A stretch of DNA of 58,040 nucleotides from a bacterium (GTDB lineage: Bacteria; Auribacterota; UBA6266), in NCBI GenBank assembly GCA_028717725.1, contig JAQUNG010000001.1:1-58040 (forward strand), in the 5' to 3' direction. Under the pieces are notes generated by a model. It did not search any database, had not been told where the DNA came from, and was given only the letters and a program-made list of their open reading frames with translations. Positions 6,080 to 53,157 of the stretch are shown here, piece after piece. Both the position numbers and the translations under genes were made by a program. Within the stretch, counting starts at the first letter, position 1; each line of letters begins with the position of its first letter.

Positions 6080-6087
6080 GTTTGATT

Positions 6088-6546: not shown

Positions 6547-6557
6547 GAGTTAAGGGT

Positions 6558-12189: not shown

Positions 12190-12209
12190 GATAGGAAAGG
12201 ATTCGCTGA

Positions 12210-13733: not shown

Positions 13734-14616
13734 GATAAATCTGACTAAAAGGGACATCTGCCCGTACTGCGATTCGGGAAAATGGGAATCCCTGTTTATT
13801 CTGGATCGATGCGGTATATGTAAATGCGCGTTCTGCGGGGGAGTATTCAGCAATCCCTATCTGAGCGAGAAAGAAGCGAAGATAGTCTTTTCGGACCCGG
13901 ATGCCGTGGGCGTTATCAATCCGGAAGTGAAATGTTACTATGACAGGGATTTTGTCTTAGCCAATTCCCGGCATACTTTTAAGGTTTTTGACTGGCTGCT
14001 TGATTTCCTTGAGAAGAATACACAGGGGAGAAAACTTTTTGATGTGGGATTCGGGATGGGATTTTTACTGGAGAAAAGCCGTCGGAGAAAATGGGAGTGT
14101 AAAGGTATAGATTTTTCCGATGAGTATTATAACTACGCGAAAGAAACGCTGGGTCTTGATGTAGTAAAAGCGGAGCTTTCGGAATTCAGAGGGCGGGACG
14201 AAGAGTTTGATGTTATAGTTCTCTGGGATGTAATAGAGCATCTTGATAATCCCGGCGATTCGCTTGGCAGGCTTCGCGGTATGCTGAAAAACGGAGGGAT
14301 GCTGGCGATAGCGACCCCAAATGAGAAAAGCCTGATTGCTTTTATTGCGAAATTTATATACAGGGCGACATTCGGTCTGGTGAAAGGCCCGTTGAGTTCG
14401 ATATATGTGTTGGAACATCCCCTGTTCTTTGACAATAACTCGCTTCGAAAATTGCTTGAACGAAATGGTTTTAATATTGTATTGTCAAAGCAGGATGAAA
14501 CTGATCTTGAAAGACTGAATCTGGGGACCCTAAAAAAAATGATAGTAAAAACTATATTCTTCTTCGCGAGATTGTTTAAAATGAGCAACAGGATAATCAC
14601 AATCGCAAAAAAATGA
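13720..14616 (+). CDS. Class I SAM-dependent methyltransferase with N-terminal Cys4 zinc-ribbon
   Basis: CPYCDS...CKCAFCGG ribbon. SAM motif I LFDVGFGMGFLL. Post-I/II motifs (VIVLWDVIEHL). Confidence 0.8.
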   Translation: MVKIEINLTKRDICPYCDSGKWESLFILDRCGICKCAFCGGVFSNPYLSEKEAKIVFSDPDAVGVINPEVKCYYDRDFVLANSRHTFKVFDWLLDFLEKNTQGRKLFDVGFGMGFLLEKSRRRKWECKGIDFSDEYYNYAKETLGLDVVKAELSEFRGRDEEFDVIVLWDVIEHLDNPGDSLGRLRGMLKNGGMLAIATPNEKSLIAFIAKFIYRATFGLVKGPLSSIYVLEHPLFFDNNSLRKLLERNGFNIVLSKQDETDLERLNLGTLKKMIVKTIFFFARLFKMSNRIITIAKK

Positions 14617-16073: not shown

Positions 16074-16777
16074 ATAAGCGCCTTGTTATTATACCCACCT
16101 ATAACGAAAGAAAAAATATAGTCAGGTTGTGCGAAAAAATCATATCGATGGAAGAAGGTTTCGATATCCTGGTCGTTGACGACAATTCACCGGATGGCAC
16201 CGGAGAGCTGGCTGAGAAAATGTCTTCAATGCATCCTGAAATCCATGTGATTAGAAGGTCGGGAAAGATGGGCATAGGGAGTGCTTATATAGAAGGCTTT
16301 AAGTGGGGGTTGGGAAAAGAATATGAGCTGTTTTTTGAAATGGACGCGGATTTCTCTCACAACCCCGAAGATTTGCTCCGGATAACGGGAACGATAAGGG
16401 ATTGTGACTTATGTGTGGGTTCAAGATATATAGAAGGGGGCGGGGTAATAAACTGGCCGCTCTGGAGGATGTTGCTTAGCAAATTTGCAGCCAGGTATTA
16501 TACCAGGATAATAACCGGTATGCCCTTGCACGACGCCACTTCAGGATTCAAATGCTTCAGAAGGACAGTGCTTGAGAATATTGATTTTAACCAGATTCAC
16601 TCTGAAGGATATTCTTTTCAGATCGAAATGCATTACCGCATTTGGAAAAAAGGTTTTCAGATAAAGGAAATCCCCATTATTTTTACAGATAGGCAGCACG
16701 GCCTGTCGAAAATGTCTAAAAAAATTATTTTTGAAGCAATAATTATTGTCTGGAAAATAAAGTTTAGCGTTAAATGA
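16070..16777 (+). CDS. GT2 polyprenol-phosphate sugar synthase (Dpm1/Ppm1-type)
   Basis: VIIPTYNERKNI, VVDDNSPDGT and MDADFSH motifs. GTGA overlap upstream. Sugar specificity not determinable. Confidence 0.8.
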   Translation: MNKRLVIIPTYNERKNIVRLCEKIISMEEGFDILVVDDNSPDGTGELAEKMSSMHPEIHVIRRSGKMGIGSAYIEGFKWGLGKEYELFFEMDADFSHNPEDLLRITGTIRDCDLCVGSRYIEGGGVINWPLWRMLLSKFAARYYTRIITGMPLHDATSGFKCFRRTVLENIDFNQIHSEGYSFQIEMHYRIWKKGFQIKEIPIIFTDRQHGLSKMSKKIIFEAIIIVWKIKFSVK

Positions 16778-18282
16778 AAATCAAAAAAGTATTTCTTCTT
16801 TTTCCTCCATGCCCGATTCCTAAGATGTTTCCCAAAAGGGTCCAGATGCCCCTGGGGATAGCATATCTGGCGTCTTCCATAAAGACTACGGGCGTAGATG
16901 TAAAAGTTCTCGACAGCCTTATTGATGGATGGAATCAGGTTGAAGAAATAGATAAAAAGAATATCCGTTTCGGATTGTCATGCCGGCAGATAGTTGACAA
17001 TATCCTGGAATATGGTCCCGATTTGATAGGCATGTCATGTATGTTCAGTGTCCAGTCTAAAATTGTTTCCGAGATCGCCGCGGAAATAAAAAAGCAGCTT
17101 CCAAAAGTAAAAATTGTTTTGGGTGGAGCCCATCCGTCAGCAATGCCTGAAGATTCAATTGCGGATAAGAATATTGATTATGCTCTTGTAGGGGAGTCTG
17201 AAGCCACATTCATAGAATTAATCCATCTGTTAAATCAGGATAAGTCCGTTGCGGATATGGATGGCATCTGTTATCGTGACGAAAGGGGGTTTTCTCGCAT
17301 TAATCCCAAGAAAAAATATATAGAAAATCTAGATGCTTTGCCTTTACCTGCCTGGGACCTTCTTCCGGTGGAAAAATATTTTAAGTTGAATAGACCCCAT
17401 GGGACGGTGACAAGGGGCAACCGAATTATTCCTGTTATTACTTCCCGCGGCTGCCCCGCAAAATGCGTTTTCTGTTCGATACATCCGATTTGGGGAAGAA
17501 TTTATAGGGCTCGCACTCCGGCAAATGTCGTGGGAGAAATAGAGATGCTCATTAATAAATATGGCGTTCAGGAGATACAGATTGAAGATGATAATATGAC
17601 CCTTGACAGGAAGAGGGCTGAGGATATATGCGACCTTATTATTGAAAAAGATATAAAAGTTTCTTTTACAGCGCCTAACGGACTTGCCGTCTGGGCTCTT
17701 GACAAGAATCTTCTTATCAAGCTGAAAAAAGCCGGGTTTTACCGTTTAACGCTTGCCGTTGAGTCGGGCAGTCAGAATACATTGACGCATATTATTCATA
17801 AACCGCTGAAAATAGATAAAGTGCTTGAAGTTATAAAAGACGCAAATGAGATCGGGTTTGATATAGATGTATTTTTTGTTGTGGGTTTTCCCGGGGAAAC
17901 TCTTTCAGAAATGCAGAAAACGTTCGATCTCGGCAAAAGTCTGGACGTTTCCAGTGTTAAATATTTCATTGCGACGCCTTATCCCGGAACAGAACTTCTG
18001 GAAATTGCCAGGGAGAAAAATATGCTTCCTGCGGATTTTGACCCGAAAGACCTCGGCATAAATGCCGTAAAAGGCAATATAACGACAGAATATTTTACGC
18101 CGGAAACGCTCGAAAAGAAGGTGTCCGCCGAGACTTTCAAAACTCAGATTACCCTGTTTAAAAGACATCCTGTCAGATATGTTACGGGTATTTTCAGGAA
18201 TTACCTGCTAAAGGACAGCGGAGCAACAATTGCGTTTCTCTGGCAGTCCTTGAAGAATTGCCTCTCTAAACGTAAGATTTAG
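16774..18282 (+). CDS. B12-binding-domain radical SAM enzyme (class B)
   Basis: N-terminal cobalamin-binding-like Rossmann segment. Radical SAM cluster motif SRGCPAKCVFCS. ATGA overlap upstream. Confidence 0.8.
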   Translation: MKIKKVFLLFPPCPIPKMFPKRVQMPLGIAYLASSIKTTGVDVKVLDSLIDGWNQVEEIDKKNIRFGLSCRQIVDNILEYGPDLIGMSCMFSVQSKIVSEIAAEIKKQLPKVKIVLGGAHPSAMPEDSIADKNIDYALVGESEATFIELIHLLNQDKSVADMDGICYRDERGFSRINPKKKYIENLDALPLPAWDLLPVEKYFKLNRPHGTVTRGNRIIPVITSRGCPAKCVFCSIHPIWGRIYRARTPANVVGEIEMLINKYGVQEIQIEDDNMTLDRKRAEDICDLIIEKDIKVSFTAPNGLAVWALDKNLLIKLKKAGFYRLTLAVESGSQNTLTHIIHKPLKIDKVLEVIKDANEIGFDIDVFFVVGFPGETLSEMQKTFDLGKSLDVSSVKYFIATPYPGTELLEIAREKNMLPADFDPKDLGINAVKGNITTEYFTPETLEKKVSAETFKTQITLFKRHPVRYVTGIFRNYLLKDSGATIAFLWQSLKNCLSKRKI

Positions 18283-18451: not shown

Positions 18452-18733
18452 ATGGAAATTAAAGAGAATGAAGTTTATACAACTGAAGAAGCCCAGAAAC
18501 TGCTGAAAATAAGCTCCAGCACAATGATGCGAATGATTAAGAAGGGACTTATCAGGACCGGGCGTGCGGGGAAACAGTACAGGATATTGGGCAAAGAGAT
18601 TTTAAGGACTGTTTCGCCGAAGCTTGAAGACCGGGTGGGCAAGCTTTATAACAAGGGGAGACAATGGGTTCATGAAGGTATAGGTGAAAACAACGATAAA
18701 TTAAAAAAAGGGGATGATAATGTTAAATCATGA
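18452..18733 (+). CDS. Helix-turn-helix DNA-binding protein, excisionase-family/MerR-like HTH
   Basis: YTTEEAQKLLKISSSTMMRMIKKGLIRTGRAGKQYRI fits the excisionase-family HTH pattern. 93 aa. The 3' end overlaps the pseB start by 20 nt. Confidence 0.65.
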   Translation: MEIKENEVYTTEEAQKLLKISSSTMMRMIKKGLIRTGRAGKQYRILGKEILRTVSPKLEDRVGKLYNKGRQWVHEGIGENNDKLKKGDDNVKS

Positions 18734-39183: not shown

Positions 39184-40933
39184 AAGGACGGTCATATTCC
39201 TCCTTGTCATAGCTCTTGCAGTTGCGTTGAGAGTTTGGGGTCTTGGTTTCGGCCTTCCGGATATTTTGCATGCCGACGAACCGATAGTCGTCAATAAGGC
39301 AATGTCTTTCGGGACGGGTGATTTTAACCCTCACTGGTTCCTGATACCGCCTTTAACCTCATATATGCTTTTTATTTTATACGGCATATTTTTTCTGGCA
39401 GGGCATATATCGGGATTTTTCCATTCCACGGAAGATTTTATCTCTCTGTATCTATCGGACCCGACATATTTTTATTTGATAGGCAGGTTTTTTCTCGGTG
39501 TAGTCCCTTCTATAATATCAGTTTTGATGGTGCGCAAAATTGCAAAAGAAGTGTCCGGGAATGAAGATATATCGATAGCCGCGGCTTTTTTCCTGTCGGT
39601 AACTTTCCTTTTTGTAAGGGATGCTCACTACATATATGCGGATATGCCGAGGATTGCATCAATGTTGTGCGCTATTTTCTATTATGTGAAGATATCGAAA
39701 GGGAATAAAACGGCGGATTATGTTTCTGCATCTTTTTTTACGGGGCTCGCTGTGGCGTTTAAATACAATTCGGCCCTGCTGGTTTTCCCTTTTTTTGCCG
39801 CTTTTTTTATGGGCAGGAATGCGGAGCAAACTCACTCGCGGAAGATTAAAAAACTTTTCTTATCCGTTTTTATAATGTTTGCAGTTTATATTTTGCTTAA
39901 CCCCTTTTCCCTGCTGGATTTTAAAACTTTTATAAATGATTTCAAAAATCAGTCGTCGCAAATGTCCGCAGCCGGAATTTGCCATCACGTTTCTTATTCG
40001 CTTCTTCACGGAATGTCGCTTAGCCTTCTCGCATGTTCCGCGCTGGGAATAGCAAGAGAATTGTACATGAAGAATAAAACAGCGCTGATTTTGATAATAT
40101 TTATAGCTGCTGAATATGCCGCCCTGGTTTTTTTCAGCCAGCCCCATGCCAGGTATGTCCTTCCCCTGATACCCGTGCTGTGTTATTTTGCGGCGTCGTT
40201 TATCTATAATCTTTCCCGCATCTTGTCGGGGGATAGCAGAAGAACGGTATGGTTTGTTGTAATTTGTCTGGTGATGTCTGCCCCGACATTTATAAAAACC
40301 TGTTATTCCGACTATTTGTTTTCGGCCGGTGATACCCGGAAAGAAGCAAAACGATGGATAGAGGAAAATATACGGAAAGGGGAAAAGATCGCCCTTGACC
40401 ATACATTTTTTGGTCCTGCGCTTTTGCCGGACAAAAGCCAGATACAGCATAAAATCACTTTGGCCGGGCGGAAAAAAATATCCGGAGCAAAAACCCTTAA
40501 ATTGAAAAAAATGCTGGAAATGGCGGATAAAAACGAGGGTTATAAACTGTACTATTTAAAAGACGAACCTTCCGATGATGAAACTTTTTTGTTCTCTATG
40601 CCCCAGATACCTTTCAGTTACGATTATTTAATTGATAATAATATCAGGTTTGTTGTCATTACCAGCGTGAATCCGGATTGCGGACATCCTGATTTTATCA
40701 AAAAAATATATGAAAGCGCCGACCTCGCGGCCGAATTTAGCCCATACAGAGATGCCGGAAGAAAATATTCGTCAAACAGGTATGTCCTTACTGGAGGCCC
40801 TTTTCTTGACAATGAAGTTTATTTAAGAAACAAAACCGGATATACTATTCGGATATATGAAATTGGTTCTGACGGAAAATCGGGTAATATTTTGAGAAGG
40901 ATAAAACGCAAAAACATAAAGAGGTGGGAATGA
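39176..40933 (+). CDS. GT-C fold membrane glycosyltransferase (ArnT/PMT_2, GT39-like)
   Basis: RVWGLGFGLPDILHADEP first-loop motif, at least 11 TM segments and a ~180-aa soluble C-terminal domain. Confidence 0.7.
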   Translation: MSKRTVIFLLVIALAVALRVWGLGFGLPDILHADEPIVVNKAMSFGTGDFNPHWFLIPPLTSYMLFILYGIFFLAGHISGFFHSTEDFISLYLSDPTYFYLIGRFFLGVVPSIISVLMVRKIAKEVSGNEDISIAAAFFLSVTFLFVRDAHYIYADMPRIASMLCAIFYYVKISKGNKTADYVSASFFTGLAVAFKYNSALLVFPFFAAFFMGRNAEQTHSRKIKKLFLSVFIMFAVYILLNPFSLLDFKTFINDFKNQSSQMSAAGICHHVSYSLLHGMSLSLLACSALGIARELYMKNKTALILIIFIAAEYAALVFFSQPHARYVLPLIPVLCYFAASFIYNLSRILSGDSRRTVWFVVICLVMSAPTFIKTCYSDYLFSAGDTRKEAKRWIEENIRKGEKIALDHTFFGPALLPDKSQIQHKITLAGRKKISGAKTLKLKKMLEMADKNEGYKLYYLKDEPSDDETFLFSMPQIPFSYDYLIDNNIRFVVITSVNPDCGHPDFIKKIYESADLAAEFSPYRDAGRKYSSNRYVLTGGPFLDNEVYLRNKTGYTIRIYEIGSDGKSGNILRRIKRKNIKRWE

Positions 40934-41790
40934 AGGACAGAATAACGATACTGGTGCCGGTTTATAATGAGAAAGAAGCTTTGCCCAAAGTTCTGGATGA
41001 TTTAAGGGATATGATGAAAAAATCGGGTTATGAAGGAGATATTCTGGTTGTTGACGACGGTTCGGACGATAGCTCGGCGGCAATAGCCGAATCTAAAGGA
41101 GCCAAAGTCATAAAGCACAGTCGCAATCTCGGTAACGGCGCGGCGAGAACAACCGGGGTTAAAGCCTCTGAAAACGAATTGATAGTTATGATAGACGGCG
41201 ATTGCACATATCCCGCGGATGCAATCCCCGGTATGATTGAAATGATGAAACAGAACGATATGGTTATAGGAGCGAGAAAAGCCGAAAAAGGAACTTTGAA
41301 GATATTGAGGACGCCCGCGAAGATGTTCATAAAAAAACTTGCGGAATATCTGGTGAGCGATAAAATACCGGATCTTAATTCCGGCTTGAGGGTGTTGAAA
41401 AAATCCCATGCGGTGAAATATCTGAAATACCTGCCCACCACTCATTCGTGGGTAAGCACCATAACTCTGGTGCTACTTTCGAAAGGATACAGGGTCGGAT
41501 ATCTCCCCATAGATTATTATCCGAGAGTAGGGAGATCGACATTTCATCCTTTGAGAGATACTTACAACTATCTTTCCCTTGTGATCAGGACGATTATGTA
41601 CTTTAACCCGCTTCGTTTTTTCCTGCCTGTTTCGATTTTTATTTTTCTTGCGGCTCTGATTAAATCGGCGGTCGACTTTATTTATACGCGCAGCATCCAG
41701 GAATCGGACATAATTATTTTTTCTACGTCTGTCATAGTGTTTGCCATAGGGCTTTTGGCTGACCTTATAGTGATGATGCATAAGGAGTAA
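40924..41790 (+). CDS. GT2 polyprenyl-phosphate glycosyltransferase with two C-terminal TM helices (ArnC/GtrB architecture)
   Basis: ILVPVYNEKEAL, VVDDGSDDSS and IDGDCTYP motifs, plus two terminal hydrophobic helices. Confidence 0.75.
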   Translation: MGMKDRITILVPVYNEKEALPKVLDDLRDMMKKSGYEGDILVVDDGSDDSSAAIAESKGAKVIKHSRNLGNGAARTTGVKASENELIVMIDGDCTYPADAIPGMIEMMKQNDMVIGARKAEKGTLKILRTPAKMFIKKLAEYLVSDKIPDLNSGLRVLKKSHAVKYLKYLPTTHSWVSTITLVLLSKGYRVGYLPIDYYPRVGRSTFHPLRDTYNYLSLVIRTIMYFNPLRFFLPVSIFIFLAALIKSAVDFIYTRSIQESDIIIFSTSVIVFAIGLLADLIVMMHKE

Positions 41791-42072: not shown

Positions 42073-43659
42073 ATGAAAGACCTTTATTTAAAAATTGCAA
42101 TGAGACAGATTCCCAGGATACTTACCCTGGCGGACAGGGATCCGGCGAGCCCGACTTACGGATGTTTTGACAGGGAATACTGGCATTACGGGACCGCGGA
42201 TTTTCCCTGCGGTATGAGCCAGGAATTTGTCCTGCCTCTTGCTCTTGTGTATAGTTATGAATTTAGGGAAAATCCCTACTACAGGCAGGAAGCTGTAAAA
42301 GACCTTGTTATCGCCGGTATAAAGTTTGCGGAAAGAAGCTCCCATCGCGACGGCTCCTGCGATGATTATTTCCCTTTCGAGAGGGCTTACGGGGCGACTG
42401 CGTTTTCTCTTTACGCTTTTGCGGAATCATGCCGGCTGATCGGGATTAAAGACTCTGAAATCACAGGATTCCTCGAAAAAAGAGGTAAATGGATTTCATC
42501 CCGTTTGGAGTCGGGAAAGCTCACGAACCATCATGCGATAGCCGGTTTAGCTCTTCTCCTTCTGTGGCAGTTAACGGGGAGAGAAACATACAGGGAAGAA
42601 GCGCTGAATAAAATAAAGGTATGCCTTTTGTGGCAGTCGGATGAAGGCTGGTTTCCGGAGTATGAAGGATGTGACCCCGGTTATCTTACGATGACGATAG
42701 ATTTTCTCGCGAGGGCGTATTCAATTACAAATAACGCCGCGCTCCTCGCATCGCTCCGGAAAGCAGTGGAATTTCTTGATTTTTTTGTTTATCCCGATGG
42801 CACTTGCGGCGGCGAATTGGGAAGCAGAGACACATATATTTTTATGCCGCACGGTCTTGAACTGATGTCGAAAGAATGCTCAAAGGCGGTTGAAATCAAA
42901 ACAAGGTACCTGAAATCGCTTGAAAACGGACTGGAAACCAATTACGAAGACAACAGAATATTCGGGCATATGACTTACAGCCATCTTTTTTCCTGGATTG
43001 ATTATTGTGATTTAAGGCGGGAGCCGGAGAGAGGTCCTTTCCGTAAATATTTTCCGGAAGCGGGAATGTATGCTGAGAAAAAGGGGAGTTATTTTTTTGC
43101 CGTTTGTGTCCATAAAGGGGGGATTTTTAAGATTTTCAGGGGCGAAGATTTAATAGCCTCCGATTCCGGATTCCTCTGTGAATTTTCGGATGGCAAAATC
43201 GGAGTTTCAAACCGGATTGAGGGAAAAAAATCTTACAGGGAAAAACCGTGCTGTGTGAGAGGCGAGCTTTATTATTATAAGCGCAAACTTATGTCGCCTT
43301 CGAAACAGGTTGTTTTCCGGCTGATCCTGATGATTCTCGGCCCTTTTCCCCGCATAAGCGGGATGTTACGCAGGATTCTGCAAAAAATTCTTATTACCGG
43401 CAAAAAGAAAGCTCCCGTTTCTTTTAAAAGGGAGTTTTCTCTGGAAGAAAAGGGGCTGACCGTTGAGGATTCGGTTTTTCTCGGCGGGAAAAAGAATGTC
43501 AAGCGGCTTTATTTCGCTGCTAATAAGGTTTCGATTTATATAGCGATGGCGGAATGCTTCAATAAGAATATGCTGTTAAAATGGCGGCAGTTCAGCGCGG
43601 ATGACATTAAAACTTTGAATGCGGAGCGTAAAACAAAGATAATAAGGCGTTTCGAATGA
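42073..43659 (+). CDS. Hypothetical 528-aa cytoplasmic protein (helix-rich N-terminal half, beta-rich C-terminal half)
   Basis: Long ORF, translationally coupled (ATGA) to the downstream gene. The layout is reminiscent of (alpha/alpha)-toroid plus beta-sandwich polysaccharide lyase/epimerase-like proteins. No motif recognised. Confidence 0.55.
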   Translation: MKDLYLKIAMRQIPRILTLADRDPASPTYGCFDREYWHYGTADFPCGMSQEFVLPLALVYSYEFRENPYYRQEAVKDLVIAGIKFAERSSHRDGSCDDYFPFERAYGATAFSLYAFAESCRLIGIKDSEITGFLEKRGKWISSRLESGKLTNHHAIAGLALLLLWQLTGRETYREEALNKIKVCLLWQSDEGWFPEYEGCDPGYLTMTIDFLARAYSITNNAALLASLRKAVEFLDFFVYPDGTCGGELGSRDTYIFMPHGLELMSKECSKAVEIKTRYLKSLENGLETNYEDNRIFGHMTYSHLFSWIDYCDLRREPERGPFRKYFPEAGMYAEKKGSYFFAVCVHKGGIFKIFRGEDLIASDSGFLCEFSDGKIGVSNRIEGKKSYREKPCCVRGELYYYKRKLMSPSKQVVFRLILMILGPFPRISGMLRRILQKILITGKKKAPVSFKREFSLEEKGLTVEDSVFLGGKKNVKRLYFAANKVSIYIAMAECFNKNMLLKWRQFSADDIKTLNAERKTKIIRRFE

Positions 43660-44606
43660 ACTGGAAAAAAGTAAAAACGGCTGCAACATTTCTGATTGCG
43701 CTATATATCCTTTTTGTAATTTATTCTAAAATAGACCTGCGCGCGTTCTGGAATTTATTCAGGGACATCGATTATTTCTGGTTTGCGGCGGGGATGTTTA
43801 TTTTTATAGTCTCCGCGTTGATTTCGTCTTTCAGGTATGTTGTTATCCTGTCCGGCCGGGCAAAAATACCGCTCTTGTCTTCATTAAAGCTGTATCTGGC
43901 GGGGAACTCTCTTAATATGGCGCTTCCTTCAAAAATAGGGGATTTGAGCAAAGCGGTTTTTTTAAAAAAAGAGGGTATTCTGGGTTATGCCGAAGGGTTC
44001 AGCAGTGTTATTGTCGAGAAGATATTCGATGTTTCAGCTTTAAGTTCTGTTATGGTCGCGGGACTTGTTTTTCTGCCTTTAAATACGTTTTTTACGCGGG
44101 ATATAAAAAAGGTATTCTTAGCGGCGGGGATGTTTTTCTTGTCCCTGCCTCTTGCCGTTTATATTCTGGGTGCTTTCAAGGTTAACGTGTTAAACAAGAC
44201 CCTTTCAAAAGCAGATGAATATTTCGCGCGGTTCCATGATTTTTTGATGGCGCTGAAGAAGAGTCCCGGAAAACTCGTCTTAATAGCTTTACTGTCTTTT
44301 TTTCTCTGGTTTTCTCATGTTTTTCAGGTGTTCTGTTTTTTGAAATCTTTTGATAATTCCGCGTCCGCCGCGATATCTTTCGCCCTGATTCCGATAGCTA
44401 TATTCATAGGGCTGATACCCATTGCTTTCGCCGGCATAGGAACAAGAGATAAAGCATTGATAGTGCTTTTCGGCTGGTATGGGTATCCAGATTACCTTAT
44501 GGCGGCAGTGGGAATAATGTGCACCGTGAGATATGTCATTCCCGCGCTTTTCGGGTTGCCGTTTATGATAAAATATATGGCGAAAGACAAAAAAACAGTT
44601 AGATAG
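43656..44606 (+). CDS. UPF0104 / lysyl-PG-synthase-TM-region-like 'flippase-like' membrane protein
   Basis: About 8 TM segments. LAGNSLNMALPSKIGDLSKAVFLKK matches the family's LP..GD loop pattern as recalled. Confidence 0.55.
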   Translation: MNWKKVKTAATFLIALYILFVIYSKIDLRAFWNLFRDIDYFWFAAGMFIFIVSALISSFRYVVILSGRAKIPLLSSLKLYLAGNSLNMALPSKIGDLSKAVFLKKEGILGYAEGFSSVIVEKIFDVSALSSVMVAGLVFLPLNTFFTRDIKKVFLAAGMFFLSLPLAVYILGAFKVNVLNKTLSKADEYFARFHDFLMALKKSPGKLVLIALLSFFLWFSHVFQVFCFLKSFDNSASAAISFALIPIAIFIGLIPIAFAGIGTRDKALIVLFGWYGYPDYLMAAVGIMCTVRYVIPALFGLPFMIKYMAKDKKTVR

Positions 44607-44710: not shown

Positions 44711-45433
44711 ATGGAAAAAGGCATCTCAATAATACTACCGGCTCTTAATGAAGAAGAAAACATAGGGCATGCAGTACATGATATAATTGAATATTTTAAG
44801 GAAAAAAAGGAATTATACGAAATCCTTATCGTAAACGACGGATCTGATGATATGACGCCGGCTCTGGCCGACAGACTTTCTCAAAAATATAAACAGGTTA
44901 GAGTCCTTCATCATAAGGCTAATGAGGGATATGGAAAATCGCTGAGAGACGGTTTTCATGCCGCTTCATATGAATACCTTTTTTTTACCGATTGCGACCG
45001 GCAATTCGATATTTCGGGCTTGGATATAATGTTTCCCCTGATTAAAACCGGTGTTGTCGATCTTATCATAGGGTACAGGCTCAAGAGGAAGGACTCTTTT
45101 GTCAGGAAATTCCTTTCTTGGGGCTATAATACGCTTGTAGGTTTTATTTTTGATTTGAATGTGAAAGATATTGATTGCGCGTTCAAGATATTCGATAAGA
45201 GGATTTTCGAAAAAATAGAGATCACTTCGAAGAAATTTTTTGTAAATACGGAAATTCTGTGCAAGGCGCATTATTACGGATATAATATGATTGAAGTCGG
45301 GGTGCCTCATTTTCCGCGGTTTGCGGGTAAATCAACGGTATCCCTGAAGTATATACCTCTTACGGTGAAAGAGCTTTTCAGGATATGGTTTGATATGAAA
45401 AAGCTCCGGAAATCAAAAAAACACGCCATTTGA
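44711..45433 (+). CDS. GT2 polyprenyl-phosphate glycosyltransferase-like (soluble)
   Basis: IILPALNEEENI, IVNDGSDD, NEGYGKS and FFTDCDRQF motifs. Confidence 0.75.
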   Translation: MEKGISIILPALNEEENIGHAVHDIIEYFKEKKELYEILIVNDGSDDMTPALADRLSQKYKQVRVLHHKANEGYGKSLRDGFHAASYEYLFFTDCDRQFDISGLDIMFPLIKTGVVDLIIGYRLKRKDSFVRKFLSWGYNTLVGFIFDLNVKDIDCAFKIFDKRIFEKIEITSKKFFVNTEILCKAHYYGYNMIEVGVPHFPRFAGKSTVSLKYIPLTVKELFRIWFDMKKLRKSKKHAI

Positions 45434-45614: not shown

Positions 45615-46205
45615 ATGGACACGAGGGCCGACAATCTGCGGGTTTTGCTCCTTGTTTTTGCCCTTTATTCTTTTAGTGTCCCCTTATACGCCGATAATCC
45701 TTCCCGGGGTATGCTTGATTATAAAAATGATAATTTTGAGATAAGCACGCCTTATCCCGCAGGGTGGTTTGTAAAAGAGCATTCAGACGGCGATTCAAAA
45801 CAGGTTTTCATATCGGAGAAAGAAATCAAGAAATCCGAAGATATGTTTAAAACCGGCATTGTAATAACAAAAATATGTAATTACAGCAAGTATTTCGGTT
45901 ATGAATTCGCCAGTTCGGAAGAAGCCGCAAAACAGATAGTGGAATCGCATCTCTCTGATTTTATGGAAAACGCGAGAGATTACTACCTTGGTTCTTTCGG
46001 TCCGGCGAGTTCCGGCGGCCGAAGCCGCCCGTATGTCGCGGATCTGAGGTTTGTGTGTAATGACGCCTCAAGGGTAAGAGAATATATTTTTGTGGCCTAT
46101 GAAGAGAATACGCTTGTGTTTGTTACAATGGAAGCTCCTGATTCCGAGTTCCTGAAATACAAAGATCTATACGATACGATTATAGCTTCGATACGGGTTT
46201 TTTAA
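45615..46205 (+). CDS. Secreted protein of unknown function
   Basis: N-terminal signal-peptide-like segment (LRVLLLVFALYSFSVPLYA/DN). 196 aa. No recognised domain. Confidence 0.6.
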   Translation: MDTRADNLRVLLLVFALYSFSVPLYADNPSRGMLDYKNDNFEISTPYPAGWFVKEHSDGDSKQVFISEKEIKKSEDMFKTGIVITKICNYSKYFGYEFASSEEAAKQIVESHLSDFMENARDYYLGSFGPASSGGRSRPYVADLRFVCNDASRVREYIFVAYEENTLVFVTMEAPDSEFLKYKDLYDTIIASIRVF

Positions 46206-46221: not shown

Positions 46222-46323
46222 ATGAATTGGTTAAAAGCCAGGAAAGACCGCCGTGGCAAATGGACAGTGATTCCCTCAAAAAAAAGATATTTTAAGAGTT
46301 TTAAATCCCCCGGCCGGAAATAA
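46222..46323 (+). CDS. Candidate small ORF: 33-aa highly basic peptide
   Basis: AAGGAGG (46208-14) lies 7 nt before ATG 46222. Product MNWLKARKDRRGKWTVIPSKKRYFKSFKSPGRK* (13 K/R, 1 D). Below the ORF-track cutoff. Confidence 0.3.
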   Translation: MNWLKARKDRRGKWTVIPSKKRYFKSFKSPGRK

Positions 46324-46561
46324 TCGGTCTTTTGCGTTTTGCCGGCGGGGACATTACGATAAACTGATTTCTAAAGTTGCGATACGACGCATCGGTGTTT
46401 CTCGGAATCCGGCAATGGGTCGGGAGTTAAGCTGTATCTGTAGATATATCAATAAGATGCGGAAATGCGCCGCTGAGGGGTGAGGTATGTCCCTTTTTAC
46501 TTTCCTCCCGAAGCCCTGCGTCCGGTCTATCCTTATATACTTCCTTTTAAACTTATCGCTG

Positions 46562-46570
46562 TGATATAAT
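46562..46570 (+). promoter_or_regulatory. Extended -10 promoter element TGaTATAAT
   Basis: Exact TGnTATAAT match about 62 nt upstream of the GTG start of the B12-radical SAM gene. There is no good -35, which extended -10 promoters do not require. Confidence 0.3.
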
Positions 46571-46631: not shown

Positions 46632-48026
46632 GTGAAAATACTCTTTTTAAGGCCTGTTACGCCCGGGGCAATTGTCCTGAATCTGATTCCTCCGATAGGA
46701 ATCGGATATCTAGCGGCGGTTTCGAGAAATGCCGGGTATGAGGTCGCCCTTCTGGATTGCATCCTTAAAAATCTTGATTACGCCGGCTTTGAAAAGGAAC
46801 TGAAGAATATAATGCCCGATGTTGTAGCTATGACAGCTTTTTCTCATGATATTCCTTCTGCCCGGAAAACAACGGCTATAATAAAAAAGGTTAATCCGGA
46901 AATTAAAGTGATAATCGGAGGACCGCATTCTTCCGGGATGCCCGGGGACACACTTAATATTCTGGATAATGTCGATTTTGCGTTTAAGGGAGAGGCGGAA
47001 AGAAGCATTGTAAAACTTTTGAAATTCATTGAAAAAAAAGAGGGCAGTCTCGAAAATATAAAAGGTCTGATATGGAGGAACGGGGATAAAATAAACATTA
47101 ATGAACAGGATTTTCCCGAAAACCTTGATGAAATACCATATCCGGCATGGGATCTTATGGAACCCGGGGATTATCCCGATGCTCCGCAGGGCGTTATTTT
47201 CAGGAAAACACCAGTTGCTCCCCTTGTCATTACGAGAGGATGTCCTTTCAGATGTACTTTTTGCGCGGGTTGGACCGTTACAGGAAAAAAGATAAGGACA
47301 AGAAGTCTTGGCAATGTTCAGGGAGAAATAGAACTGCTCTATAAGAAATACGGGGTCAGGGAAATACATGTTCTTGACGATAATTTCTCGATGAACATTG
47401 AGTTTGTGAGGGGTTTCTGCGATTGGCTTATCGGGACGGGGTGGAACATATCATGGTGCTGTCCGAACGGCTTAAGATGCGACACGCTGGACGAAGATAC
47501 CGTAAAACTTATGAAAAAGTCCGGCTGCTATTATATATCCATAGGGATTGAATCAGGTTCGGACAGAATACTGAAAAATATGAAAAAAGGACTTTTGGTA
47601 GAGAAGATCAAGGAACAGGTAAAAATGATTACAGGTGCCGGGATGGATGTTAACGGATTCTTTATACTCGGATATCCGGGAGAAACCGAAGAAGATATAC
47701 GTAAAACGATTGATTTTTCCAAAGAACTAAAACTGACAAGAGCCGCGTTTTACAGCTATATGCCCCTGCCGGGAACGGAATCTTACGAAACGCTGCTTAA
47801 ATTAAAAGAGATACAGGCCATAGATTTCGGTAAGATGACCGAGATGACGGTGGCATATACGCCACGCGGAATGAGCAGGGAGAGGCTTAAAGAACTGCAG
47901 AGAAAAGCGCACCTTGAATTTTATTTGAGGCCTGAGATAATGTTTAAACTGCTGAAAGAGATTAAATCGGTGAATCAGTTGAAATATATTGCCAAAAGAG
48001 CGAAAGCGTATTTATTTGACGGATGA
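46632..48026 (+). CDS. B12-binding-domain radical SAM enzyme (class B), paralogue of 16774-18282
   Basis: Cobalamin-binding-like N-terminus (IGIGYLAAV...LLD) and cluster motif TRGCPFRCTFCA. Shares the (I/L)P(Y/L)PAWDL(M/L) motif with the other copy. GTG start. Confidence 0.8.
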   Translation: MKILFLRPVTPGAIVLNLIPPIGIGYLAAVSRNAGYEVALLDCILKNLDYAGFEKELKNIMPDVVAMTAFSHDIPSARKTTAIIKKVNPEIKVIIGGPHSSGMPGDTLNILDNVDFAFKGEAERSIVKLLKFIEKKEGSLENIKGLIWRNGDKININEQDFPENLDEIPYPAWDLMEPGDYPDAPQGVIFRKTPVAPLVITRGCPFRCTFCAGWTVTGKKIRTRSLGNVQGEIELLYKKYGVREIHVLDDNFSMNIEFVRGFCDWLIGTGWNISWCCPNGLRCDTLDEDTVKLMKKSGCYYISIGIESGSDRILKNMKKGLLVEKIKEQVKMITGAGMDVNGFFILGYPGETEEDIRKTIDFSKELKLTRAAFYSYMPLPGTESYETLLKLKEIQAIDFGKMTEMTVAYTPRGMSRERLKELQRKAHLEFYLRPEIMFKLLKEIKSVNQLKYIAKRAKAYLFDG

Positions 48027-50500
48027 AAAAAATAATTTCAGGCAGAAAATATTTTATAATAATCCTGTTCCTGTCGGTTTTGCTTTATCTCGGTGATCAG
48101 GTTTTTTTAAAATCCAGTTTTCTCAGCGGTGATTATAGGTCCCAGCATGTGCCGTGGGCGATAGCGCTGGATCGGGCCGTAAAAGACCTGTCACTGCCGC
48201 TTTGGGATATATATACCCACTCCGGGTTCCCCTTGCTGGCTGAAGGTCAGGTCGCGGCGCTGTATCCGGCGAACCTGTTTTTCTACATGCTTTTTCCCGT
48301 TGATATTGCGTATGCATGGTCCAATGTATTCCATTACCTGCTCGCGTTTCTGTTTATGTACTTATTCCTTTCGAATGCTGGGCTTGACGATTTTGCTGCT
48401 TCGGCGGGCGCGCTGTTTTTCTCTTTCGGGAGCGCCAGCGGCGGCGGGTATTATAACACGATATCACTGAAAGTCCTTTGTTGGTTTCCTCTCACGCTTT
48501 ATCTCACAGACAAATATTTTTCAGCAAAAAAAATGTATTTTTTGCTGATAATAGGCGTTGTCTTTGCGCAGCAGGTGCTGGCAGGGTATTTTCAATATGC
48601 TTTTTATTCGATAGTTGTTACAGTGCTCTACTACTATTATGTGTCTTTTGTCGAGGGCAGGAGTAGGTTGGTAAAAAGCATATGCAAAGATACGGCCCGG
48701 CTTTTTCTCTCGGCCGCAACCGCGCTTATAATAGCAGCTCCTCAAATTTACGAGTCTTTGAAATTAATCAATCTGTGTTCCAGGGGGGACAGGGACATTT
48801 ATTTTGCCTTATGGGGTTCCTTCAACCCATGCGGCGCAGCGACATTGTTTTTCCCCCATTTGGGCTGGATAACTTTCGGCGCGGTTTTTATCGGTGTCGT
48901 GCCGCTGTCGATGACATTTTTTATAAAAAGGAATGTGGTCAACAGGCAGTTGAAATTTATGTTGTTTCTTTTCTGTTGTTCGCTGGTTTTTGCCCTGGGC
49001 AGATACAGCCCTGCCTATAGGTTTATATTAAATACGGTAAAATTTTACGGGTTCAGGGTTCCCGCGAAATTCCTGTTCTTCAGCGGTGTTTCTCTGAGCG
49101 TTATAGCCGCATACGGGATTCATTCCCTGCTTAAAAACAGGGATGACAGGGATTTTTTGAAAAAAAGATTTTTCATATGGGTCGTTGCGGCGATTCTTGT
49201 TGTTTGCCTGCTTGGCACTGCGAATATTGCCCTTGAACATAAAGAATTCTGGCTGGAAAAGGGACGTGAATATGTGATAAACAATGTTTACGGCAAGATG
49301 CATCACAAACATTCGCTGGACGAATATATGGCGAGATTGGAGCCCATATATGATTCGATAAAATCCGCTGTCTATTTGCGCAACCCGTTTATTTTAACGG
49401 GAGTGTTTTCAGTCATAATTTCTCTTGCGCTTTTATATCTCTATTCGAGATTTTCCGTTAAGAACGGTATTTTTATCGCCGCTTTTCTGTTTGTTTCAAT
49501 GTGCGAGCTCCTGGTTTTTAACAACAGGTGTAAAATAAAGACAAATATGGAATCGCTCGGCACATTCAAAGCCGAATCACAGATAGCGGATTTTATAGGC
49601 CGGGATAAAGGACTATTCCGCATTTATGAATTTGTTGAATCAGGTATCGGTAACACGGAAGAAATATTCGAGGTTCTGCCCAACAGGTCTATAATCTACC
49701 GTTTATATGATATCGGGTGTTATACGCCTCTGGTTATGAAAGATTATTACGATTTTATAGGACGTCTCGGCTCTGTGGATGATTCAACGGGAGCGGCTAT
49801 TCCCGATAAAAAAGCACTTCGCGATGATCTGAATCTGCTGAGAATGCTTAACGTTAAGTATGTGTTGTCTGTGGATGAGATCCCGTTTCTCGACCATGTC
49901 GCGGATTTTGACGGATGCGGGATATATAAGTTAAAAGGTTCTCACGGCAGATTTTCCGTAACGGATAAAATAGTGTTTTCCGAAGGGGATAGGATCCGGG
50001 AAAATATCATCCGATTGGCCGGCACAGCCGAAAAACCCTTCGTTTATGTTGAGAATGGAAACGAATGTGACATTGATTTAAAAAATCTGAAGTCATATAA
50101 AAGCAAAATCGAAGTCAAGAAATACGCCGCCGGCAGTGTTGTTTTGAACGTGTTCAACGAGCCGGGTTCCGCAGTGCTCGCGACTTCAGAGCTCTATTAT
50201 CCGGGCTGGAAGCTTTTTGTTAACGGTAAAAGAGGCGAATTTCTGAAAATCAATTCGGTTTTCAGAGGGGTTTTACTGCCTAAAGGACAGACAAAAATAG
50301 AAATGTTTTATCGTCCTTACATTTTTTATATTTTGGGGATAATCAGTTTTCTGGGATATTTATTCTGTATTGGTTTTTGCGTTTCTTGCGAGAGGGGAAT
50401 AAAGCAGTCATTAATATGGGTTTCCTGTGTGTTCGCGGTTTGCGTCTTTATTGTATTTTTCTGTGTATTCATATATTCCCAGGCGGCGGGCAAACTATGA
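48023..50500 (+). CDS. YfhO-like large GT-C membrane glycosyltransferase
   Basis: 825 aa with many TM segments. C-terminal YYPGWKLFVNGK motif typical of YfhO-family proteins, plus a terminal TM. ATGA overlap upstream. Confidence 0.6.
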   Translation: MKKIISGRKYFIIILFLSVLLYLGDQVFLKSSFLSGDYRSQHVPWAIALDRAVKDLSLPLWDIYTHSGFPLLAEGQVAALYPANLFFYMLFPVDIAYAWSNVFHYLLAFLFMYLFLSNAGLDDFAASAGALFFSFGSASGGGYYNTISLKVLCWFPLTLYLTDKYFSAKKMYFLLIIGVVFAQQVLAGYFQYAFYSIVVTVLYYYYVSFVEGRSRLVKSICKDTARLFLSAATALIIAAPQIYESLKLINLCSRGDRDIYFALWGSFNPCGAATLFFPHLGWITFGAVFIGVVPLSMTFFIKRNVVNRQLKFMLFLFCCSLVFALGRYSPAYRFILNTVKFYGFRVPAKFLFFSGVSLSVIAAYGIHSLLKNRDDRDFLKKRFFIWVVAAILVVCLLGTANIALEHKEFWLEKGREYVINNVYGKMHHKHSLDEYMARLEPIYDSIKSAVYLRNPFILTGVFSVIISLALLYLYSRFSVKNGIFIAAFLFVSMCELLVFNNRCKIKTNMESLGTFKAESQIADFIGRDKGLFRIYEFVESGIGNTEEIFEVLPNRSIIYRLYDIGCYTPLVMKDYYDFIGRLGSVDDSTGAAIPDKKALRDDLNLLRMLNVKYVLSVDEIPFLDHVADFDGCGIYKLKGSHGRFSVTDKIVFSEGDRIRENIIRLAGTAEKPFVYVENGNECDIDLKNLKSYKSKIEVKKYAAGSVVLNVFNEPGSAVLATSELYYPGWKLFVNGKRGEFLKINSVFRGVLLPKGQTKIEMFYRPYIFYILGIISFLGYLFCIGFCVSCERGIKQSLIWVSCVFAVCVFIVFFCVFIYSQAAGKL

Positions 50501-52347
50501 CGGCATTTTTCAATATCTTTTTTATGTTATTTGTTCTGTGGATTTGCGCCTGCGCCGGAAAGACAGTTCTGGACGCCGTGAAACAGGCATCCCTCAACCG
50601 TTTGAGGGATTTTGTCCTTTCGTCCGGGATAGGTTTCAGTGTGTTGATAATCTTTATCTCGGTCTTTGCGGCCGCGGGTTTTTTGCGACGCTGGACGGGT
50701 TTTGCTGTTTTAACCGTTATTGTCTTTATGGGTTTTAAGAATCTTATTTTATCGCTGAGGGGATTCCCGAAATCCGTGAAAACACTGTTTTCATTAAGAT
50801 TGAGCATTGTGCAATGGGTTTTGGTTCTGGTTCTGGCGGCTGGAGTTTTGTCGGTATCGGTCTGCGCTTCGGCGCCTCCGACGGGAATGGATTCTCTTGT
50901 ATATCACTTGAATCTTCCGAAGGAATTTATTGAATATCAGGGAATATATGCCGTTCCTTACGATGTTAACGCGTTATGGCCGCTGAACATTGAAATGCTT
51001 TTTTTATTAGGACTTCTTTTTAAAAATGCCGTTATAGCAAAAATGGTCAATTTCTTAACGGGTGTTTTATGTATATTTTCTGTTTATCTGATTTCGAGGA
51101 ATTTTGCTTCAAAGACAGCATCTTTAACCGCCGCGGCGCTTTTTTATCTGATGCCGGCGGTAGTTTCCCAGTCGGGATACGCGTATGTCGATGTTGCGAT
51201 AACATTTTTCTGTTCTCTTATGGTGATTTTGTTGCTTGATTATGCGAAAAACGGCGAAAGAACGGTTGTAATACTATCAGGATTGTTCGCGGGAATACTC
51301 ATAGGATCGAAGTTTACGAATGCGCTGATAGTGGGCGTTATTTTTATTGCTTTTACGGTCTGCGATCTGACAGAGAGAGGGGGGACAAAGCGTCTTTTGT
51401 TCAACGCGGTTTTATTTTGTTCCGTTGCTGTTCTTGTGTCGTGTCATTGGTATATAAGAGCGTATCTCATTAGGGGGAATCCCGTTTTCCCGTTTTTACA
51501 GGGGTTTTTCGGAAATGATGTTGTGCGCGAATTTAAAACATCGGCGGCCAATACAGGACTACTTGATTTTGTGTTTACCCCGTTTAAAGCTGTGTTTAAA
51601 CCGGAGCTTTATGGGGGAATAGCCAACCAGATAGGACCTATTCCTCTTGGATTTTTGCCGATAGCGGTTATTTCGGCGCGGCGCAGTAAATACGCAAGGC
51701 TGCTGCTGTCTTGTTTTCTGGCGTATTTCTGTTTGTGGTTTGTAGTTAAGCAGAACCTGCGATTTCTGCTTCCCTGCATGGTTATGTTTTATCCTGTTGT
51801 CGGTTTGAGTTTTGATGATTTATACGGTTCAGGCAGGTCGGTTTTTATTATATTTTCGTTTATTGCGGCGCTTGTTATTTTACTCTTTTTGGGCGCGGCT
51901 TTTTATTACGCGGTTCCCGCCGCACCTTTGTTTTTCGGAAATGAGTATCCCGAGAATTATCTTCTTGAAAAAGAACCGACCTATGGATTGGGCCTGAGCG
52001 TGGAAAAAACAGTGCCGAGAGACGGGACAGTGCTGATGGTGGGTGAAATAAAAAGATTTTATATAAAAAGGAAAACGGTCAGGGCGGATGGTTTTTACCA
52101 TATGTCCGATTATTTTGACAGAGTGAAGTCAAAGGAAGATGCGTTTGCGTTCCTGAAAGATGCCGGCATAGAATATGTCGTTTCTTCGAACATCAAAATT
52201 CCGGAAAGGAAAAGCGCTTTTTCCTTTAACCTTTCCAGCCTTATGCAGGATAATGATTTTACATCCGTTTATTTTACCCGTGTGGGCGGATATGAATTCA
52301 GGCGAGGGGACAACGTGATAATATATAATATTTATAAAATGCGCTGA
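50497..52347 (+). CDS. GT-C fold membrane glycosyltransferase (ArnT/PMT_2-like)
   Basis: DSLVYHLNLP first-loop motif, at least 11 TM segments and a soluble C-terminal domain. ATG 50497 overlaps the upstream TGA; the ORF-track start 50377 lies inside the upstream gene. Confidence 0.65.
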   Translation: MTAFFNIFFMLFVLWICACAGKTVLDAVKQASLNRLRDFVLSSGIGFSVLIIFISVFAAAGFLRRWTGFAVLTVIVFMGFKNLILSLRGFPKSVKTLFSLRLSIVQWVLVLVLAAGVLSVSVCASAPPTGMDSLVYHLNLPKEFIEYQGIYAVPYDVNALWPLNIEMLFLLGLLFKNAVIAKMVNFLTGVLCIFSVYLISRNFASKTASLTAAALFYLMPAVVSQSGYAYVDVAITFFCSLMVILLLDYAKNGERTVVILSGLFAGILIGSKFTNALIVGVIFIAFTVCDLTERGGTKRLLFNAVLFCSVAVLVSCHWYIRAYLIRGNPVFPFLQGFFGNDVVREFKTSAANTGLLDFVFTPFKAVFKPELYGGIANQIGPIPLGFLPIAVISARRSKYARLLLSCFLAYFCLWFVVKQNLRFLLPCMVMFYPVVGLSFDDLYGSGRSVFIIFSFIAALVILLFLGAAFYYAVPAAPLFFGNEYPENYLLEKEPTYGLGLSVEKTVPRDGTVLMVGEIKRFYIKRKTVRADGFYHMSDYFDRVKSKEDAFAFLKDAGIEYVVSSNIKIPERKSAFSFNLSSLMQDNDFTSVYFTRVGGYEFRRGDNVIIYNIYKMR

Positions 52348-52359: not shown

Positions 52360-53157
52360 ATGTTGGAGCCGATTGATAAATTAAGGGGTATGTGCCAGAA
52401 AAAAGATTATAAGAAAACCGGAAATATGATGGCAAGATTAATAACCCGCGATATGGCTTTATATATCACCAGGCTGCTGATACCTACGGGAATTACGGCA
52501 AATCAGGTTGTATTTTTGACGATTATGATGGGAATTATATCCGCGGCGTGTTTTGCTTTCGGCGGAGGTTTTATGATGCTTGCCGGAGCCTTGTTTTTTC
52601 AGCTTTGGTATCTTTCCGACCATGTGGACGGGCAGATAGCAAGATACAGAAATGCATCGAGCCTTACTGGCGCATTTTATGATTTCTATGCGCATTATAT
52701 AGTCCATTCCCTTGTGCTCGGGGGACTGGCCCTTGGTCTTTATATGAGGTATGAAAATCTGGGAATTCTGATTTTGGGACTTGCCGCGTGTTTTTCCGTG
52801 AATATGGTTTCATTGATTAATGATTGTGTTTATAAGGCGTTTTATAACGGCTTGTCGCGGGAGGAAAAAGATTTGACTTTTAGAGCAGGTTCTCAAACAG
52901 CGGAAAAGAATAAAATAAGGGAAGGTTTACCTAAAAAAATATTTATGTTTATGCATAAACTTACGGAAATACACGTTATTATGAATGTAGTTACGATTGC
53001 CGTAATCGTCGATTTTTTCTTCGGCACGGATCTGATTCTCTTTGAAACGGCCGTTCTGGCGTTGGTAGCTACGGCGGTTTGGGTATTTAAATTGGCGCGC
53101 ATCGTAACGGCAAAAGAAGTAGACAGGAAATATTCGGAATTTTTCAGGGGGCGGTAG
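52360..53157 (+). CDS. CDP-alcohol phosphatidyltransferase-family membrane protein
   Basis: DHVDGQIARYRNASSLTGAFYDFYAH fits D-G-x2-A-R-x8-G-x3-D-x3-D, except the last Asp is His. Multiple TM segments. Confidence 0.7.
   Translation: MLEPIDKLRGMCQKKDYKKTGNMMARLITRDMALYITRLLIPTGITANQVVFLTIMMGIISAACFAFGGGFMMLAGALFFQLWYLSDHVDGQIARYRNASSLTGAFYDFYAHYIVHSLVLGGLALGLYMRYENLGILILGLAACFSVNMVSLINDCVYKAFYNGLSREEKDLTFRAGSQTAEKNKIREGLPKKIFMFMHKLTEIHVIMNVVTIAVIVDFFFGTDLILFETAVLALVATAVWVFKLARIVTAKEVDRKYSEFFRGR

Follow-up and report, generated by a model that had tools for sequence, protein, structure and literature searches.

Here we describe an envelope-glycan region of a bacterium of the lineage UBA6266 (Auribacterota) in which two B12-binding radical S-adenosylmethionine (SAM) enzymes are built into predicted modules for extracytoplasmic glycosylation. 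The region, a stretch of 58 kb from contig JAQUNG010000001.1 (positions 1 to 58,040, all genes on the + strand), is called the window below. The enzymes are rSAM-1 (502 amino acids, 16774-18282) and rSAM-2 (464 amino acids, 46632-48026). Gene order and sequence comparison identify the conserved, co-evolving partner of these enzymes as a short family 2 glycosyltransferase (GT2) resembling DPM1, and not the YfhO protein next to rSAM-2. We consider it somewhat probable that the two belong to an uncharacterised clade of class B radical SAM enzymes that tailors sugars, most likely by C-methylation, within modules made of a GT2, a flippase and a membrane glycosyltransferase of the GT-C type. The pairing of GT2 and radical SAM enzyme recurs in many uncultured microbes, and it is probably the sign of a means of modifying surface sugars that has so far gone undescribed.

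Several three-component systems offer a comparison: ArnC/ArnD/ArnE-F/ArnT, GtrA/GtrB/GtrC, CsbB/GtcA/YfhO and PpgS/Rv3779. The modules described here resemble them in having a GT2 like dolichol-phosphate-mannose synthase (DPMS), GtrB or ArnC and a GT-C of the PMT_2 or YfhO type, and in one module there is a flippase-like protein. They lie in a lipopolysaccharide (LPS) locus, and by their predicted parts they amount to such a system with a radical SAM enzyme added. There are differences too. The cognate GT2s lack the C-terminal transmembrane helices of GtrB and ArnC and in this respect resemble eukaryotic DPM1, the flippase-like protein is of the PF03706 family rather than the GtrA or EmrE type, and the genome holds several modules, unlike Arn- or Gtr-type systems. 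ArnD provides a precedent for the editing of lipid-linked sugars, since it alters its sugar while this is on undecaprenyl phosphate. To our knowledge, no radical SAM enzyme takes part in any of the systems listed. In the literature that we searched, no class B radical SAM enzyme is described with polyprenyl-phosphate sugars, GT-C proteins or LPS, and reviews to 2026 list none (including PMC9204698 and PMC13459092).

Two class B enzymes outside the curated families

The fold class of both enzymes is certain: they are class B radical SAM proteins. Each has a B12-binding domain (PF02310; 68.3 and 76.3 bits, cut-off 32.1) and a Radical_SAM domain (PF04055; 94.4 and 84.9 bits), and the cysteines of the CxxxCxxC motif, C227/C231/C234 in rSAM-1 and C204/C208/C211 in rSAM-2, are invariant in our alignments (A2 and A1, respectively). 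Among solved structures, those nearest in sequence to either enzyme are the methyl-coenzyme M reductase glutamine C-methyltransferase (QCMT; PDB 9CCB) and the diol dehydratase AprD4 (6FD2). An AlphaFold2 model of rSAM-2 has a confidence (pLDDT) of 92.3, and its top Foldseek matches are QCMT 9CCB, AprD4, TsrM, OxsB, CysS and TokK.

A preliminary description of the window, read from the sequence, had presented the two as paralogues. Both open reading frames (ORFs) are present where it placed them, and BLASTP aligns the proteins at 33% identity over 401 amino acids (E 3e-74). The motif pairs that it quoted, LGIAYLA/IGIGYLA, LPLPAWDLL/IPYPAWDLM and SRGCPAKCVFCS/TRGCPFRCTFCA, stand opposite each other in this alignment. 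It had also raised the question of whether the enzymes might fall into a characterised family such as BchE or HpnP; they do not, as neither reaches any NCBIfam cut-off.

All NCBIfam scores of the two enzymes are in fact at or below half of the family cut-off. BchE (TIGR02026) scores 182 bits with rSAM-2 and 157 with rSAM-1 against an equivalog cut-off of 481, and HpnJ (TIGR03471) scores 182 and 169 bits, respectively, against 577.6; these two models are tied as the best curated match of rSAM-2. The best match of rSAM-1 is Sden_1168 (NF038361), at 276 bits (169 for rSAM-2) against 575, a family for which no physiological substrate is known either (PMC9204698). HpnR scores 94 and 104 bits against 650, and HpnP is absent from the 25 best matches listed for either enzyme. 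Membership in BchE, HpnJ, HpnR or Sden_1168 was therefore rejected.

The family is widespread. At E <= 0.001, 4610 database clusters match rSAM-2, from hosts that include Omnitrophota, Nitrospirota, Elusimicrobiota, Planctomycetota, Bacteroidales, Chloroflexota and DPANN archaea; the closest named homologues come from metagenome-assembled genomes (MAGs) of Omnitrophota. On the whole we think it likely that rSAM-1 and rSAM-2 represent two old sister subfamilies of class B enzymes that tailor sugars.

A short GT2 is the conserved partner

How closely are these enzymes tied to glycosylation genes? We scanned the source genome (1.75 Mb, 96% complete) for paralogues and compared 172 loci and contigs, for which labels such as L001 stand. 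The genome encodes seven such radical SAM paralogues. Six of them directly adjoin a GT2 or GT-C gene, as against 47 of 1708 other ORFs (2.8%; Fisher p 4.5e-9). Adjacency to GT2 or GT-C genes, on which the preliminary description had staked its proposal, is thus conserved, and the neighbourhoods are not unrelated to glycosylation. Elsewhere in the genome, Pfam annotation gives the gene orders rSAM-SPASM, rSAM, GT2, rSAM, PMT_2 (contig C91), STT3, GT2, rSAM, GT2 (C36) and Wzx-like, rSAM, PMT_2, family 4 glycosyltransferase (GT4), PMT_2 (C43).

Homologues at 50-71% identity lie in a recurring set of genes: a PMT_2 GT-C, a class I methyltransferase, a short GT2 (234-249 amino acids) and then the radical SAM enzyme. 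The stop of the GT2 gene overlaps the start of the radical SAM gene by 4 bp in L002, L004, L165, L167 and L168; in L166 one gene follows the other with neither gap nor overlap. GT-C genes accompany the GT2 both in the window (those starting at 12210, 14613, 48023 and 50497) and in L165-L168. Across the whole comparison set there are 36 same-strand pairs in which a GT2 is followed by a radical SAM gene, and 13 of 18 rSAM-2-like genes have a GT2 within three genes. Counts of GT-C genes among the rSAM-2-like loci are lower bounds, as phmmer and our home-made hidden Markov models (HMMs) are insensitive; Pfam annotation of L165-L168 and of the loci in the source genome reveals GT-C proteins that these HMMs had partly missed. 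The similarity of GT2 partners tracks that of the radical SAM enzymes (Mantel r 0.53, a value reached in 0 of 5000 permutations), in a test that cannot fully separate co-evolution from the shared ancestry of whole loci, a caveat to be counted with those weighed below.

More distant homologues (28-47% identity) often occur in tandem, with as many as seven B12-binding radical SAM genes in a row, amid GT4, GT2, methyltransferase and sugar-nucleotide genes. Arrays of five to seven paralogues are found in an unclassified bacterial MAG (L025:1-10319) and in two Bacteroidales MAGs (L046 and L053, around 9900-17060).

The pairing is most direct in module A. The GT2 partner of rSAM-1 (16070-16777; 235 amino acids, Pfam Glycos_transf_2, no transmembrane-like segment) matches the catalytic domain of the Pyrococcus DPMS (PDB 5MLZ) at 138 bits (E 3.6e-39), and its stop lies inside the rSAM-1 start codon, in the ATGA at 16774-16777. 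The overlap noted in the preliminary description is thus there, and its name for the GT2, polyprenyl-phosphate-sugar synthase, is a reasonable one. Orthologues of rSAM-1 at 66-88% identity retain the overlap, and the GT2s nearest to this one, with normalised bits of 0.77-0.80, are those that accompany the rSAM-1 orthologues of L167 and L168. Upstream are a PMT_2 GT-C (12210-13733; E 2.2e-11, at least six transmembrane-like segments), which overlaps the next gene by 14 bp; a class I SAM methyltransferase (13720-14616; Pfam Methyltransf_23/11/25), which also occurs next to GT2-radical SAM pairs in L002, L004, L165, L166 and L167; and a second PMT_2 GT-C (14613-16073; E 8.2e-13), which begins in an ATGA overlap at 14613. 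Module A has no flippase candidate of its own.

The pair in module B is split. Here the preliminary description had coupled rSAM-2 to a YfhO-type GT-C whose start it overlaps. The overlap is real: the rSAM-2 stop lies inside the start codon of the YfhO-family gene (48023-50500; 825 amino acids, E 7.3e-24), in the ATGA at 48023-48026. Elsewhere, this overlap, or any YfhO gene directly downstream, occurs in L001 only, which is the closest relative, and on this ground YfhO was rejected as the conserved partner. The proposed coupling to GT2 and GT-C genes stands in the source genome and in distant lineages; the choice of YfhO as the partner does not.

By sequence comparison, the ancestral, cognate GT2 of rSAM-2 is instead the gene at 44711-45433 (240 amino acids, Pfam Glycos_transf_2, no transmembrane helix), because its nearest relatives (0.54-0.65) sit immediately upstream of rSAM-2 orthologues. 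At these junctions the genes overlap by 4 bp in L165, L002 and L004 and abut without a gap in L166. Its best PDB match is DPMS, followed by GtrB and ArnC (E 5e-12 to 6e-8). It is preceded by a gene for a flippase-like membrane protein (LPG_synthase_TM; 43656-44606) with seven transmembrane-like segments, which matches PF03706 (E 1.2e-39) and exceeds the cut-off of TIGR00374 (60.7 against 43.2 bits). No gene for a small flippase of the GtrA type was found.

Between the GT2 gene and rSAM-2 lie a gene for a secreted or anchored protein of 196 amino acids (45615-46205; N-terminal hydrophobic segment at residues 8-26, no Pfam or NCBIfam match) and a small basic ORF of 33 amino acids (MNWLKARKDRRGKWTVIPSKKRYFKSFKSPGRK; 46222-46323), which has AGGAGG 7 nt upstream and a terminator-like hairpin after it (46312-46329). 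Both occur in the window and L001 only. In L001 the small ORF has equal length, 70% identity and several synonymous changes; no other locus has it, and it does not recur elsewhere in the genome. The comparison of loci thus identifies a lineage-specific insert that separated the GT2 from rSAM-2.

Upstream of rSAM-2 the sequence reads as an extended -10 promoter-like element, TGTGATATAAT (46560-46570). Its counterpart in L001, TGTGTTATAAT, is identical at 10 of 11 bases, and conservation continues through the adjoining ACCGG, whereas the surrounding spacer has diverged. We infer that this element is a promoter and that rSAM-2 probably heads its own transcript, together with YfhO and a PMT-type GT-C. 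For the latter (50497-52347; 616 amino acids, Pfam PMT and PMT_2), the start is most likely ATG 50497 rather than TTG 50377, because the former gives an ATGA overlap with the YfhO stop and a length close to that of the L001 homologue (615 amino acids).

The sugar as the likely substrate

What do the enzymes act on? Domain fusions tie the family to sugar metabolism. A radical SAM enzyme is fused to a class I methyltransferase three times, to two GT4 domains once and, in protein P0194, to a nucleotidyltransferase. The nucleotidyltransferase half of P0194 resembles the heptose-1-phosphate guanylyltransferase HddC, and its close relatives are fused to GmhA- or GmhB-like domains. The other half is an rSAM-1-family enzyme, and the best curated match of P0194 is Sden_1168 (325 bits, under the cut-off of 575). 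The locus around it resembles one for an NDP-heptose: it encodes proteins like HddA, GmhA and GmhB and a fructose-6-phosphate aldolase (FSA), and with them STT3, a short GT2 and a flippase-like protein. The fusion suggests that the radical SAM enzyme acts on a nucleotide sugar, at least there. It recalls the fosfomycin pathway, in which Fom3 is a class B methylase that needs a CMP-activated substrate and Fom1 carries a cytidylyltransferase domain; the window has no phosphonate genes.

A related fusion concerns the membrane proteins of these modules. In P0248, P0264, P0280, P0305, P0320 and P0334, an HddC-like sugar-1-phosphate nucleotidyltransferase domain is joined to a PF03706 (LPG_synthase_TM) membrane domain. 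This suggests that PF03706 proteins work closely with nucleotide sugars, and they may do more than flip lipids.

The preliminary description had left room for a modified carrier. The target would then be a lipid, either the polyprenyl carrier or the acyl chains of lipid A, as for HpnP, HpnR or the archaeal lipid methylases. Lipid-methylating class B enzymes are well known (PMC13459092), there are lipid A genes in the locus, and both enzymes match TIGR04072 ('lipid biosynthesis B12-binding/radical SAM protein'), albeit weakly (125-137 bits against a cut-off of 360). Yet a common carrier would not need six paralogues in one genome, each with a co-varying GT2 subfamily. Because the six have GT2 subfamilies of their own, the pattern speaks for a specificity that is set by the sugar rather than by the carrier lipid, which all would share. 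Lipid A is disfavoured as a substrate because the family is also found in DPANN archaea, which do not have it. The HpnR scores (94-104 bits against 650) do not help the case for a lipid, and none of the fusions, to nucleotidyltransferase, GT4 or methyltransferase domains, is to a lipid enzyme. We regard a lipid substrate as improbable.

A peptide or protein substrate would place the enzymes with the C-methyltransferases of ribosomally synthesised and post-translationally modified peptides (RiPPs) or with QCMT, and would make the glycosylation genes mere neighbours. The closest solved relative is indeed 9CCB, the ApyD and rSAM_ocin_1 models match at 100-154 bits, and a conserved ORF of 33 amino acids, 308 bp upstream of rSAM-2, could encode its substrate. 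The ApyD and rSAM_ocin_1 scores are, however, far under the cut-offs. No peptidase, leader-binding protein or exporter is encoded nearby, and six of the seven paralogues in the genome adjoin GT2 or GT-C genes. The small ORF was rejected as a RiPP precursor for rSAM-2 because it and the 196-amino-acid gene occur in the window and L001 only, and orthologues elsewhere have the GT2 directly upstream. This alternative is highly improbable.

Which reaction is catalysed?

If the substrate is a sugar, what is done to it? Cobalamin-dependent C-methylation of sugar carbons is carried out by MoeK5 in the moenomycin pathway, where the sugar is on a phosphoglycolipid, and by GenK/GenD1 in that of gentamicin. 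These enzymes, compared here by description only, differ in that they belong to the secondary metabolism of actinomycetes and have no GT-C or polyprenyl-phosphate GT2 partner. Published sequence-similarity networks place Fom3, MoeK5 and HpnJ in one cluster (PMC9204698).

The chief alternative keeps the enzymes at the same point of the pathway but has them change the sugar by a radical reaction other than methylation. This could be contraction of the ring to a carbocycle, as by HpnJ or calditol synthase; dehydration of a 1,2-diol leading to deoxygenation, as by AprD4; epimerisation; or formation of a C-C bond. The hopanoid enzymes HpnI, HpnK and HpnJ, of the pathway to bacteriohopanetetrol cyclitol ether, are in function among the nearest analogues, as are MoeK5, GenK and Fom3. 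There, the GT2 HpnI puts a hexosamine on the lipid and the class B enzyme HpnJ then reworks the lipid-linked sugar (PMC9204698, PMC13459092); that rSAM-2 scores as high with HpnJ as with BchE, and higher than with any other curated model, points the same way. HpnJ, however, makes a terminal lipid head group and not a GT-C donor, and no hopanoid genes (the hpnI, hpnK context) are present among the annotated genes of the window. A carbocyclic product would, by the chemistry of glycosyltransferases, leave no anomeric leaving group for the GT-C.

AprD4, which removes the C3' oxygen in apramycin synthesis, acts on a sugar ring, and both sequence and fold place it among the two nearest solved structures. 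It works without cobalamin and requires a reductase, AprD3, as its partner. Genes like AprD3 are not consistently adjacent to those studied here, and the B12-binding domains of our enzymes score at least twice their cut-off. The NCBIfam model of AprD4 gives 79-80 bits against a cut-off of 500, and the scores for all such non-methylating families are far too low for membership. The class I methyltransferase that is often already in the module may cover methylation. Taken together, a non-methylating reaction seems rather unlikely, if less so than a lipid or peptide substrate.

Several points weigh against C-methylation of sugars in GT2/flippase/GT-C modules, our preferred reading. Methylation is merely the commonest known activity of class B enzymes, and BchE and HpnJ, the best curated matches of rSAM-2, are not methylases; neither is AprD4. 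rSAM-2 is probably transcribed apart from its GT2. In the more distant homologues GT-C adjacency is not universal, and their unlabelled neighbours are mostly GT4 enzymes, tetratricopeptide repeat (TPR) proteins, further radical SAM genes and sugar-nucleotide enzymes. The nucleotidyltransferase fusion, finally, is limited to one archaeal lineage.

Cofactor supply

Seven of the eight proteins with a B12-binding domain in the genome are the radical SAM enzymes studied here. CobS, CobA/BtuR and CbiB were not found in the 1.75-Mb genome. Because the genome lacks CobS, CobA and CbiB, the organism looks like a corrinoid auxotroph. Contig C124 (L172:19-4011) carries BtuF-like, FecCD, ABC ATPase and TonB genes and then a near-threshold cobalamin riboswitch (L172:3386-3482), which precedes a gene for a signal-peptide protein that is cut by the contig end. 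Both riboswitch models score under threshold: RF00174 at 29.9 bits against 31.5, and AdoCbl-II at 32.7 against 36.5. The 426-bp gap upstream of rSAM-2 contains no cobalamin riboswitch or other Rfam element, and nothing in the whole window reaches a gathering score. These genes fit the use of imported corrinoid by the radical SAM enzymes, and they are no proof of it.

A proposed radical tailoring step in extracytoplasmic glycosylation

In the scheme that we favour, the choice of a sugar as substrate, the kind of reaction and its place in the pathway, the use of cobalamin and the acceptor are all inferred. In the first step, the cognate GT2, DPM1-like and without transmembrane helices, would load a monosaccharide onto polyprenyl phosphate. 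In the second, the radical SAM enzyme would alter the monosaccharide handled by its GT2 at an unactivated carbon, most likely by C-methylation; its target may be the nucleotide sugar or the lipid-linked sugar. The linked class I methyltransferase may add an O- or N-methyl group. A flippase-like protein would then move the sugar with its lipid across the inner membrane to the outer face, where a GT-C of the PMT_2 or YfhO type would transfer it to an envelope acceptor.

The position of both modules between genes for lipid A and core makes LPS the probable acceptor in this organism. One edge of the window (2429-9849) encodes WaaA and LpxK, together with a lipid A acyltransferase and a family 9 glycosyltransferase (GT9, heptosyltransferase), and a second GT9 gene (57028 to the end) is the last; genes of this kind thus flank the two radical SAM modules.

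A wider version of the proposal is possible but, in our estimate, doubtful. In it, cobalamin-dependent radical SAM enzymes would be a fourth component of Gtr- and Arn-type systems, each paralogue rewriting one monosaccharide at an unactivated carbon on polyprenyl phosphate or just before it. Many uncultured anaerobes and DPANN archaea would then carry C-methyl or otherwise branched sugars on LPS and other polymers of the envelope, and the GT2-radical SAM pairs (six here) would be a variable element that diversifies the surface. With no cobalamin synthesis of its own, the organism would rely on the corrinoids of its community for its surface chemistry.

If the GT2-radical SAM pairing does alter surface sugars, class B radical SAM enzymes of a numerous and broadly distributed group would gain a function, and the textbook scheme of GT2, flippase and GT-C would gain a radical tailoring step. 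One would then expect uncultured microbes to bear on their surfaces C-branched or otherwise altered sugars that are as yet unknown. The structure of the surface would be tied to the exchange of vitamin B12, and there would be new biocatalysts for unactivated sugar carbons. Cognate GT2-radical SAM pairs make defined two-gene constructs, so the proposal is directly testable.

Other features of the region

Between the edges of the window are GT4 and GT2 enzymes, five GT-C proteins of the PMT or YfhO type, a Wzx-like flippase and a nonulosonic-acid pathway (PseB/PseC-like, NeuB and a cytidylyltransferase). One of the GT2s, at 40924-41790, has two C-terminal helices, like GtrB. An ORF of 93 amino acids (18452-18733) lies between rSAM-1 and the PseB-like gene; L167 has at this place a gene for a 94-amino-acid HTH_17 protein (excisionase/MerR-like), and the ORF may encode a small regulator of the nonulosonic-acid operon.

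A second type of radical SAM protein is tied to these glycan loci. Radical SAM-SPASM proteins border the glycan modules both in the window (137-1153; 338 amino acids) and on contig C91 (L174:4276-5274, - strand; 332 amino acids). On contig C36, an STT3/PglB-type oligosaccharyltransferase of 856 amino acids (L175:4946-7516, - strand) is encoded directly upstream of the GT2-rSAM-GT2 set, which hints at protein N-glycosylation with a radically tailored sugar.

Two further genes adjoin module B. The gene at 42073-43659, the end of which runs 4 bp into the flippase-like gene, encodes a protein of 528 amino acids with no solid family match and no transmembrane segment; it is kept in L001 (530 amino acids, with a faint Pec_lyase match). 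Directly after the GT-C genes, 52360-53157 encodes a membrane protein of the CDP-alcohol phosphatidyltransferase family. Its nearest relatives are inositol-phosphate transferases, and the same glycan may receive a phospho-alcohol substituent from it.

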